Of a stretch of DNA of 64,000 bases, positions 60,901-62,746 are shown in pieces. The DNA is from Escherichia coli O157:H7 (GTDB lineage: Bacteria > Pseudomonadota > Gammaproteobacteria > Enterobacterales > Enterobacteriaceae): assembly GCF_013167455.1 (NCBI RefSeq), contig NZ_CP038328.1, one strand, 5' to 3'. Each line of letters begins with the position of its first letter. Within the stretch, counting starts at the first letter, position 1. A program made the position numbers.

Positions 60901-62746
60901 CGCTTTGGCGATAAAGTACCGGAACAGTCCATCCAGTGGCTGACAGATAACGGTTCAGCGTATAGAGCGCATGAAACACGGCAGTTCGCCAGAGAGTTGA
61001 ATCTGGAGCCCTGCACAACGGCAATCAGCAGTCCTCAGAGTAATGGAATTGCAGAAAGGTTCGTGAAAACGATGAAGGAAGACTATATCGCGTTCATGCC
61101 GAAACCGAATGTAAGAACGGCATTGCATAATCTTGCAGTGGCGATCGAACATTACAATGAAAACCATCCGCACAGTGCGTTGGGTTATCGCTCTCCGCGA
61201 GAATATCGACGTCAGCGGGTAACGTTAACTTAAGATACACCCCCTGTCTGGAAATAAGGGGGCAAGAACAATGATCAGATTCCCTGGTGAGTAAGAATTT
61301 TACTTTCTGAACTCCTCTGAGAGTATTGACTTGGAGAAACACCAAAATAACGTCTAAATACATAAGTAAAGTATGAGACACTGGCATAACCACAGACCTT
61401 AGCTACTTTACTAATAGGATAACAACGAGTGCTGAGTAAATATTCAGCCATTTGCATCCTCTCATCAAGTATGATCTTACTGAATGATACCCCCTCTTCT
61501 TTCAATTTCCTCTTTAGTAAACTTTCGCTGAGATATAATCTTGATGATATATCCTTAAGACGCCATGGTGCAGATAAATCCGTATGAATAATCGTTTTAA
61601 CTTTAGCCCCTGTGCTTTTCAAACATCCAAACAGAAATACTCCAAATTGTTTTTCAGAAGAAAATGCAGAGAGACATGTAAAAGCAATAGACTCATCAAA
61701 AATTTCTATGTATTCAGCACAGTGATTAGCCCAACTAATTAATCCTTTAATTAAACTGAAGTCAGCAAAGTTTATTTTTAAATAAGATGGATATTCCCTA
61801 CAATCAGAAATATCCCTTAAGTTATTAGCTTTCAAATAGCGACTAATAAACTCAGCGCCAAAATCCGCCACTATCACTCTTTCAGGATATGTCAGGAAAA
61901 AATCTCTAGAGCTAGAGTCGACAAGTACAGATGAACCTCTCTCCAGAAACACACTCTCTTTTCCGAAATAAACATCAAAGGACTCCAAAATCAATATAAC
62001 TGAACATGTAGTTGCCATATCATCCACCCAATTTAACTGAAACCAGGATGAAGTATATGTATATAAAGTTCACTTTGCCAAACTTCAGTATAAAAAACCA
62101 CTAAAAATAGGGTGTGATAAAAAATACCGTAACAATAAAGCAAAGGATTATAAATTCCGTTACAGTTACAAATGATACTCAAGAAACAATTCCTTAGGAA
62201 AAACTTATTTACAGCCAATAAGTAAGACACTTATATGATATCAAGTTTTCATAAAACATAACTAGGCTAAATAGCTGCGCCTAATACCGCTACACTTTTG
62301 CCAGCCCATGTTTGCCTCCGGGTATTGACCCCTTCTCTACGCAACTTCAGTTCCCACCACCAACTTTGCGGCAGCTTTGTAGGATCAATGTCTAAAAGAA
62401 TAATGGTGACCGATAAGAAAACGACTGAATAACTGCAGATTTTCGCTCGAAACCTTCCTGTCAGATCCATAGCGAATCAAGTGCTGAATGTCACAGTATC
62501 GAACAGAAAACAGTGACGATCTAACCCTTCAAGAATATTCTACGATTGTTCTGTTTAGGAAAAGCAAGGCGGGAAGTCGGGAGATAAGTCATTGATAAAG
62601 TGGCGGAGAGAGGGGGATTTGCCCCCCCGGTAGAGTTGCCCCTACTCCGGTTTTCGAGACCGGTCCAATCATCAAACGAAACATAAAATTAATTCACATT
62701 ATGAGGAAAAGTATCTTTTTTGTACTATGTAAATTCAAAGACTTAG

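Follow-up and report, generated by a model that had tools for sequence, protein, structure and literature searches.

A 64,000-nt stretch of DNA from Escherichia coli O157:H7 (NCBI RefSeq assembly GCF_013167455.1, contig NZ_CP038328.1), hereafter referred to as the window, contains at positions 62601–62666 of its minus strand a 3′ fragment of a gene for tRNA-Ser(CGA). This fragment is very probably an inactive relic of a prophage right attachment site (attR, P.O.B′) that was formed at the tRNA gene serU, moved together with at least 278 bp of host DNA by a capture of the lambda-bio type, was spread by phages and is now carried as cargo by a prophage integrated at thrW. The proposed course of events is as follows. 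A prophage integrated at serU would have excised aberrantly (illegitimately), in the manner of lambda-bio phages, taking with it a P.B′ site and the adjacent host DNA. A rearrangement linked to an insertion sequence (IS) would have left 278 bp of the host DNA and brought them together with a cassette containing an AraC-family gene. Phages with integration modules of the lambda and thrW types may then have passed the resulting block among themselves by recombination, and O157:H7 would have received it as right-end cargo of an SfV/e14-like myovirus prophage at thrW.

The serU fragment and its attR-like surroundings

The minus strand from 62666 to 62601 reads GGACCGGTCTCGAAAACCGGAGTAGGGGCAACTCTACCGGGGGGGCAAATCCCCCTCTCTCCGCCA (66 nt). 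In an alignment with intact serU from a K-12-like strain (locus L002, 2977–3066), it corresponds to nucleotides 25–90 of the gene, which include the attachment core, and is identical at 64 of the 66 positions. The anticodon stem-loop with the CGA anticodon, the long variable arm, the T arm, the 3′ acceptor strand, the discriminator and the CCA end are kept; the 5′ acceptor strand and the D arm are missing. The sole two mismatches change TT to GG at the first two positions of the T-loop (62623–62622), the loop at 62623–62617 reading GGCAAAT versus the canonical TTCAAAT of serU. Coordinates, strand, anticodon and the exchange of GGC for TTC had all been given correctly in the original prediction, and its description of the fragment as a non-functional 3′ piece of a serU-type gene, of prophage-attachment origin, was borne out. 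A BLAST search with a 107-nt stretch against annotated tRNA-Ser genes gave an expect value (E) of 6e-44, and the full 344-bp similarity to the serU locus (see below) has E = 5e-167; the resemblance to serU is therefore far beyond chance.

ARAGORN reported no tRNA gene over the whole window, and Rfam gave no tRNA match in the fragment at gathering score. With relaxed settings the best Rfam match was tRNA-Sec, at 21.5 bits against a threshold of 47 bits (E = 0.7). The ARAGORN and Rfam blanks rule out a functional or degenerate tRNA gene, and the fragment appears to be without present tRNA function. A sub-threshold Rfam match to the "Plastid-psbl-rps4 3′UTR RNA" family at 62604–62655 (31.8 bits versus 68, E = 6e-4) lies on the plus strand, opposite to the fragment; membership in that family was rejected as most likely an artefact of antisense tRNA-Ser similarity.

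The GG form of the T-loop is limited to O157 and to strains SCEC020026 and SCU-118. TT is present in strain HB-Coli0, in free phages and in all in-situ copies, and the T-loop is wild-type TTCAAAT in every in-situ attR copy. The HB-Coli0 copy has the same phage arm and the same site as the O157 copy and still carries TT; the change to GG is therefore late and lineage-specific, and probably represents neutral decay free of tRNA constraint. We also observed that T to G changes in the T-loop arose independently in non-functional copies, as GT in the attR of strain 2013C-4830 (L003, about 6045) and as GG in O157, SCEC020026 and SCU-118. The run of G ahead of the T-loop lengthens from five to six to seven across copies, suggesting a local mutational hotspot.

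Similarity to the serU locus extends for 278 bp past the CCA end, to position 62323, and this part (62323–62600, minus strand) matches the intergenic spacer between serU and yodB, i.e. the B′ arm and host flank. In total, 344 bp (62666..62323) are 97.1% identical to L002 3001–3344. The captured flank is 97.1–97.5% identical to flanks found in situ and 98.6–100% identical to other relocated or phage-borne copies. A multiple alignment revealed, in this order, phage-side DNA (62667–62845), the 3′ part of the tRNA gene, the bacterial flank and a sharp break at 62323/62322. The fragment together with its surroundings is thus an attR-shaped piece (P.O.B′). As in an attR, the serU-matching 3′ part has phage DNA on its 5′ side, running into right-end genes, and the flank of the target locus on its 3′ side. 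Of the four defining traits of such a junction it has these three; it does not, however, lie at its cognate locus with a partner attL, since the other end of the element carries thrW and a thrW-type integrase.

Beyond the break, at 62267–62322 of the minus strand, there is a 56-nt right-terminal stub of an IS630-family (ISEc33-like) element, recognized by matches of 56–57 nt to the ends of IS630-family transposase genes. The stub corresponds to L007 2501–2556 and terminates at the terminal inverted repeat GCGCAGCTATTTAG. The serU flank is fused to an internal point of this truncated IS; 62323/62322 is, therefore, a rearrangement junction. The possibility that the DNA farther left, with the AraC-family gene, is a larger chunk of native serU-locus DNA was also considered and rejected: the IS630 stub lies beyond 62323, and the AraC cassette was found at the right ends of prophages that sit at the lambda site or at thrW, and in no case beside yodB.

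On the other side of the fragment, the phage-side (P) arm of a serU-type attachment site occupies 62667–62845 (minus strand) and extends into the start of a GIY-YIG gene. It is 94.6% identical to the attR-proximal DNA of strain E-ge-1 in situ (L005 19876–20398). The GIY-YIG gene, LEM-3-like (62843–63616, plus strand, annotated as WP_000355484.1), is the last prophage gene before the arm; its product matched no NCBIfam family. It is followed by an annotated pinE-type invertase gene of the same prophage (63677–64000, minus strand), which runs off the end of the window and is colinear with pinE in MB15. The whole of 64000–62323 is 97.8% identical to the right end and attR of the MB15 prophage (L008 43826–45503).

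To find counterparts in situ, we used a chimeric probe composed of the GIY-YIG end of the window, the attR and the flank, extended with K-12 sequence toward yodB. MB15 and RMDEC332 were the two genomes that covered the probe completely, with an identity of about 98%. MB15 contains a complete 39-kb prophage between serU and yodB that is colinear with the O157 prophage, with the order int and xis, yfdRQP, cI/cro, HK97-type head genes, Mu-like contractile tail genes, an invertible tail-fibre segment, pinE, the GIY-YIG gene, attR and yodB. The GIY-YIG protein of MB15 is identical to that of O157 (WP_000355484.1) and is encoded at the same position of a serU-resident prophage. In three further strains, GF130, PM4 and E-ge-1, a GIY-YIG-type arm is located in situ at serU. 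The original prediction had assigned the GIY-YIG and pin genes to a different element; this assignment was not supported, the two genes being contiguous with the fragment just as in serU-resident prophages. A comparison of attL, attR and attB in MB15, E-ge-1 and K-12-like strains defined the identity block of attP and attB as running from GGACCGG to GCCACT, about 66–68 nt that include the anticodon-loop region and are fully kept in the relic. Two matches with a longer flank, H165 and H167, were considered as possible intermediates at thrW and were found to be ordinary in-situ serU attR sites in strains that lack yodB.

Several side observations concern serU as an integration target. The GIY-YIG gene always adjoins the serU-type arm, in SfV-like myovirus prophages (MB15, GF130, O157) as well as in a lambdoid siphovirus prophage (PM4); elsewhere it is found at L008 44210–44983 (MB15) and, in both L009 and L010, at 11485–12258. 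It behaves as a module tied to the serU-type attachment arm. In Sp14-type lysogens (OK1, L006 667–756; D10, L102 13524–13613) the variable arm of serU reads GTGGGGGCAACTCCAC, two compensatory changes away from the K-12 sequence GTAGGGGCAACTCTAC. The 3′ half of the expressed tRNA is, therefore, phage-donated in these strains; the attR copy and the window relic have kept the ancestral version. In E-ge-1, serU at the attL of an MB15-type prophage (L005 6046–6135) ends with CTCTCTCCACCA versus the usual CTCTCTCCGCCA, a G73-to-A change at the discriminator that was apparently supplied by the phage arm; the MB15 attL has the normal G. Finally, Klebsiella phages ST101-KPC2phi6.3, KpF5 and P7641 and Citrobacter phage Chris1 (H196–H199) contain segments of about 80 nt that are 91–93% identical to the 3′ part of serU plus some 16–20 nt of trailer. 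These are presumably serU-type attP sites, in which case serU would be a widely used integration target across Enterobacteriaceae.

Copies of the block in phages and the direction of transfer

A 1.87-kb block corresponding to 62662..60797 of the window is present, at 98.9–99.2% identity, in the complete 46–49-kb genomes of three lambdoid phages, mEp332 (PV340541), ev099 (NC_049953) and PhiR70_1 (PV340577). It consists of the attachment core, the 278-bp flank, the IS630 stub, the AraC-family gene and an IS2-like stub; its limits were set in ev099 and mEp332. In ev099 the block is located between the tail-fibre assembly gene (tfa) and the attP–int–xis region, the equivalent of the lambda b region. 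In related prophages it was found at the right end, in one context next to ybhB/bioA, the locus at which lambda classically attaches, and in others at thrW, with either the GIY-YIG arm or a lambdoid arm.

Left of the core, the free phages have another arm than the window: a lambdoid one, which strain D10 likewise has in situ at serU, with the native flank after it. At the attL of D10 an intact serU is followed after 27 nt by an integrase gene, and the attL of MB15 diverges from the flank right after GCCACT. Since neither attL contains the flank, the flank is not the P′ arm of these phages; the possibility that it belongs to the phage's own attP is ruled out by the D10 and MB15 attL sequences, and what the free phages carry is, therefore, a hybrid P.B′ site with host DNA.

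Three derived substitutions (C at 62379, A at 62378 and G at 62375) are present in all relocated and phage-borne copies and in no in-situ copy examined, and the junction between the flank and the IS630 stub is identical in all relocated and phage-borne copies. The shared derived single-nucleotide polymorphisms (SNPs) and the common IS junction thus point to a single capture. Among copies with the GIY-YIG arm the flank is the same at every position (100% identity); those with the lambdoid arm carry two further changes. The crossover between arm and flank lies between 62661 and about 62438.

The distribution of the flank indicates that it is host DNA. It was found beside serU in 5,422 of 5,426 E. 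coli genomes, where it follows immediately on the gene or comes after a resident phage's attR. Apart from the three derived SNPs, the alleles of the captured haplotype fall inside E. coli diversity. In E. albertii the first ~130 nt of the flank are found at the same chromosomal position with 89.5% identity.

The thrW island of O157:H7 and the AraC-family gene

The region 60000–64000 of the window is 100% identical to strain FRIK944 and many other O157:H7 strains. In FRIK944, proA is followed by an intact thrW, a thrW-type integrase gene and a full SfV/e14-like prophage that ends with pinE and the GIY-YIG gene; then come the serU piece, the IS630 stub, the AraC-family gene, the IS2-like stub, a thrW fragment, a P4-like integrase gene and the rest of a P4-like satellite. 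Strain SCEC020026, which is not O157, contains the same island, from thrW to the thrW repeat (L004, about 22712–22758), followed by yagP′/paoD. The serU piece is thus internal right-end cargo of the thrW-integrated prophage and not its edge.

The thrW fragment, 47 nt of the 3′ end of a tRNA-Thr gene (60474–60520, minus strand), is 100% identical to the corresponding part of intact thrW. The prophage integrated at thrW has its attR here, and the P4-like element was inserted at this point; the fragment is a genuine local tandem-integration junction. This agrees with the compound Sp1/Sp2 prophage described at thrW in O157 Sakai, which has Sp14 at serU (PMC8190617). The original prediction had viewed the two tRNA fragments as attachment scars stacked by successive integrations. 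This holds for the tRNA-Thr fragment; it does not hold for the serU fragment, which has the 278-bp flank, lies inside the thrW unit, belongs to a block present in free phages and was not made here. The intact serU that the prediction had proposed to look for is present in O157:H7, at the attL of an Sp14-type lambdoid prophage with espJ/tccP (compare PMC8190617). It lies beside mtfA, some 1.7 Mb from the fragment, and the attR of its resident prophage is in place beside yodB.

An AraC-family regulator gene (61275–62018, minus strand; annotated, and YdeO/GadX-like by NCBIfam matches below cut-offs) is the cargo gene of the block. The names of its protein clusters read only "AraC family". It is probably patE (z0321, O-island 8), to judge from the description of PatE, PsrA and PsrB as prophage-borne AraC-like regulators, with PatE regulating acid resistance and the enterocyte effacement locus (LEE) (PMC10877973). 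The serU piece shares the strand of the gene and lies about 580 bp upstream of it, and the DNA upstream of the gene consists of the IS630 stub and the captured serU spacer. A promoter scan of 61900–62900 gave one promoter-like site (62081–62052), fewer than the mean of 3.0 in shuffled sequence, and this site lies downstream of the captured DNA; a terminator scan of the same interval found none.

Between the two tRNA fragments there is a C-terminal stub of an IS2-group (IS3-family) transposase gene, annotated as a pseudogene (60799–61233, plus strand). It matches positions 172–289 of the 301 of the NCBIfam IS2 TnpB model and is 73% identical to IS2 at the DNA level, which upholds the earlier identification of an IS2 remnant at this place. 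The P4-like satellite occupies about 48100–60363 and contains genes for an integrase, a primase-helicase, an Icd-like protein, Psu and Delta/ogr; the annotated P4-type integrase gene (59131–60312, minus strand) matches the NCBIfam integrase domain NF007246 with 319 bits. No second thrW repeat was found in the window within 2–3 mismatches at the far end of this element. Rfam matches in the satellite include the C4 antisense RNA (52365–52452) and isrK (52521–52598). Next to the integrase gene, a run of minus-strand genes (about 55852–59128) encodes proteins annotated in RefSeq as ABC-three component system proteins, an AAA ATPase and hypothetical proteins, and looks like anti-phage defence cargo in the variable region of the satellite. 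Elsewhere in the window, the Rfam family IS009 has a full-length match at 34901–35100 (minus strand, 190.8 bits, gathering score 117), unrelated to the serU fragment.

Alternative explanations, known systems and significance

Several points weigh against the interpretation of the fragment as a captured attR. No original junction of illegitimate excision could be recognized: at its distal end the host DNA now meets the IS630 stub, and a later rearrangement has probably overwritten the first junction. A search for the donor lineage, with the captured haplotype in situ, found none, the best full-length in-situ match being 98.4%. In other genera only ~16–20 nt past the tRNA gene are shared, and the case for a deep chromosomal ancestry of the flank comes chiefly from E. 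albertii and from the way in which the flank behaves, like a B′ arm. Finally, a flank of single origin is joined to two different arms, a situation that homologous or integrase-mediated recombination could have produced.

The last point raises the question of whether the captured attR (P.B′ with 278 bp) is a portable recombination site in the b region of phages, one that would dock a phage into a prophage or into the serU region by means of serU integrases or of the 344-bp similarity. We consider this unlikely. If true, such a site would swap integration modules between lambdoid and SfV-like phages, and would explain both the presence of one flank on two arms, joined at the tRNA core, and the presence of a serU-type phage body at thrW.

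Transfer in the reverse direction, with the 278 bp being an ancient phage arm left behind in the chromosome and the phage block a native attP region, appears improbable. It would fit with the conservation of the segment in Escherichia only, and cargo genes can indeed sit between an attachment core and int, as three genes do in MB15. The segment is, however, absent from the attL side in lysogens of both arm types (D10 and MB15) and is always found on the bacterial side of attR, for at least four phage types at serU. Moreover, the phages that carry the block integrate elsewhere with attP sites of their own, the E. albertii copy shows divergence at the species level, and the captured haplotype nests within E. 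coli diversity but for its three derived SNPs.

There is likewise little to recommend an intrachromosomal event in O157, in which recombination between the thrW and serU prophages (inversion or translocation) moved the serU attR end, and we regard it as very improbable. O157 does have prophages at both loci, and thrW and serU prophages of this SfV/e14-like family are colinear and highly similar. Yet just 278 bp of flank were moved, ending in an IS stub instead of running into yodB, and the serU attR of O157 is intact in place. The same junction and SNPs are present in unrelated non-O157 strains and in free phages; the arrangement therefore predates O157 and travels in virions.

The chance that the relic is kept for a function, either as a secondary attachment site for serU integrases or as a promoter or leader part of the AraC-family (patE-like) gene, is comparably slight. 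The identity block is preserved in full, two different natural serU-phage arms are joined at the core to a flank that has one origin, and the relic lies upstream of the AraC-family gene in the same orientation. However, an occupied secondary attB was not detected: a probe for the predicted left junction (lambdoid arm, core and MB15-type P′, the sole arm/P′ combination probed) was covered to at least 80% in 0 of 5,426 genomes. Homologous recombination within the 344-bp similarity explains the exchange of arms equally well, the T-loop has been free to mutate, and the only promoter-like site lies outside the captured DNA. In SCEC020026 (L004 20285–21050) the captured flank is interrupted by IS1 at the equivalent of window positions 62436–62445, with flanking matches that overlap by 9–10 bp, as would fit a target-site duplication. 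Everything on the left of the AraC cassette, flank included, has given way to IS1 in strains E5 and PER12-33-A, where the AraC-family gene is intact. The relic is therefore dispensable, and would provide at most a portion of the DNA upstream of the AraC-family gene and a patch of similarity for recombination.

That an element integrated at a serU-like site here and left a scar stacked beside that at thrW, with GIY-YIG and pin in a separate element, is hardly credible: two tRNA 3′ fragments do lie 2 kb apart with IS debris between them, and the one from thrW is truly a local tandem-integration junction, but no E. coli genome examined has serU here (the gene is beside mtfA and yodB), a local attachment-site duplicate would not carry the downstream flank of serU, so that the 278-bp serU-specific spacer speaks against a scar made on the spot, the fragment lies inside a thrW-bounded prophage, its GIY-YIG arm is contiguous with it as in serU-resident prophages, and the same block is present in free phage genomes and in lambda-site prophages.

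Prophage attR junctions at tRNA genes are well known and are exemplified by ptwF and pawZ in E. coli K-12. Like these and like the attR of Sp14/CP-933U at serU, the relic is a 3′ fragment that starts near the anticodon stem; phage DNA precedes it on the 5′ side, a bacterial flank follows it on the 3′ side, and it is near-identical to the Sp14-type attR. Unlike them, it is found away from the cognate locus, has no partner attL, is inside a thrW prophage, and its flank is cut at 278 bp by an IS stub. Lambda-bio specialised transducing phages, which arise by aberrant excision, carry a hybrid P.B′ site and adjacent host DNA. Phages ev099, mEp332 and PhiR70_1 similarly carry P.B′ and contiguous right-side host DNA in a non-essential region by att-int. 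They differ from lambda-bio phages in being fully equipped wild phages with a second, working attP-int for another site, and the block is a natural fossil and not a laboratory isolate. They also differ in that the captured DNA is just 278 bp of non-coding spacer, the excision junction having probably been overwritten by the IS-linked rearrangement.

Tandem arrays at tRNA genes, such as Sp1/Sp2 at thrW (PMC8190617), resemble the thrW fragment, which is stacked between the SfV-like prophage and the P4-like element; the serU fragment, in contrast, is internal cargo of the first element and not a stacked junction. Similar to phage morons and b-region cassettes with PatE, PsrA and PsrB (PMC10877973), the fragment travels with an AraC-family gene and IS debris between tail-fibre genes and attP in several phage types. 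Unlike a moron gene, the tRNA and spacer part is non-coding host DNA of no evident benefit, a hitch-hiker. The most fitting label is that of a relocated attR relic, of the specialised-transduction kind and carried on a phage cargo cassette; the kind is well known. The feature tables of the records examined list nothing under the fragment, and no description of it was found in the literature searched.

The serU relic does not represent a new kind of biology. It provides a natural case of lambda-bio-style capture, in which a hybrid attachment site with host DNA survives in viable wild phages and is passed across integration specificities. For the annotation of O-island 8 of O157:H7, the compound prophage at thrW, it matters that not every tRNA fragment can be read as the edge of an island, as would come naturally: with the serU fragment taken for a boundary, a single prophage would be wrongly cut in two. 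The diagnostic SNPs and the IS junction constitute a dated marker for tracing module exchange between lambdoid and SfV-like phages. Finally, the ancestry of the DNA upstream of the gene that probably encodes PatE bears on how the regulation of patE was assembled.

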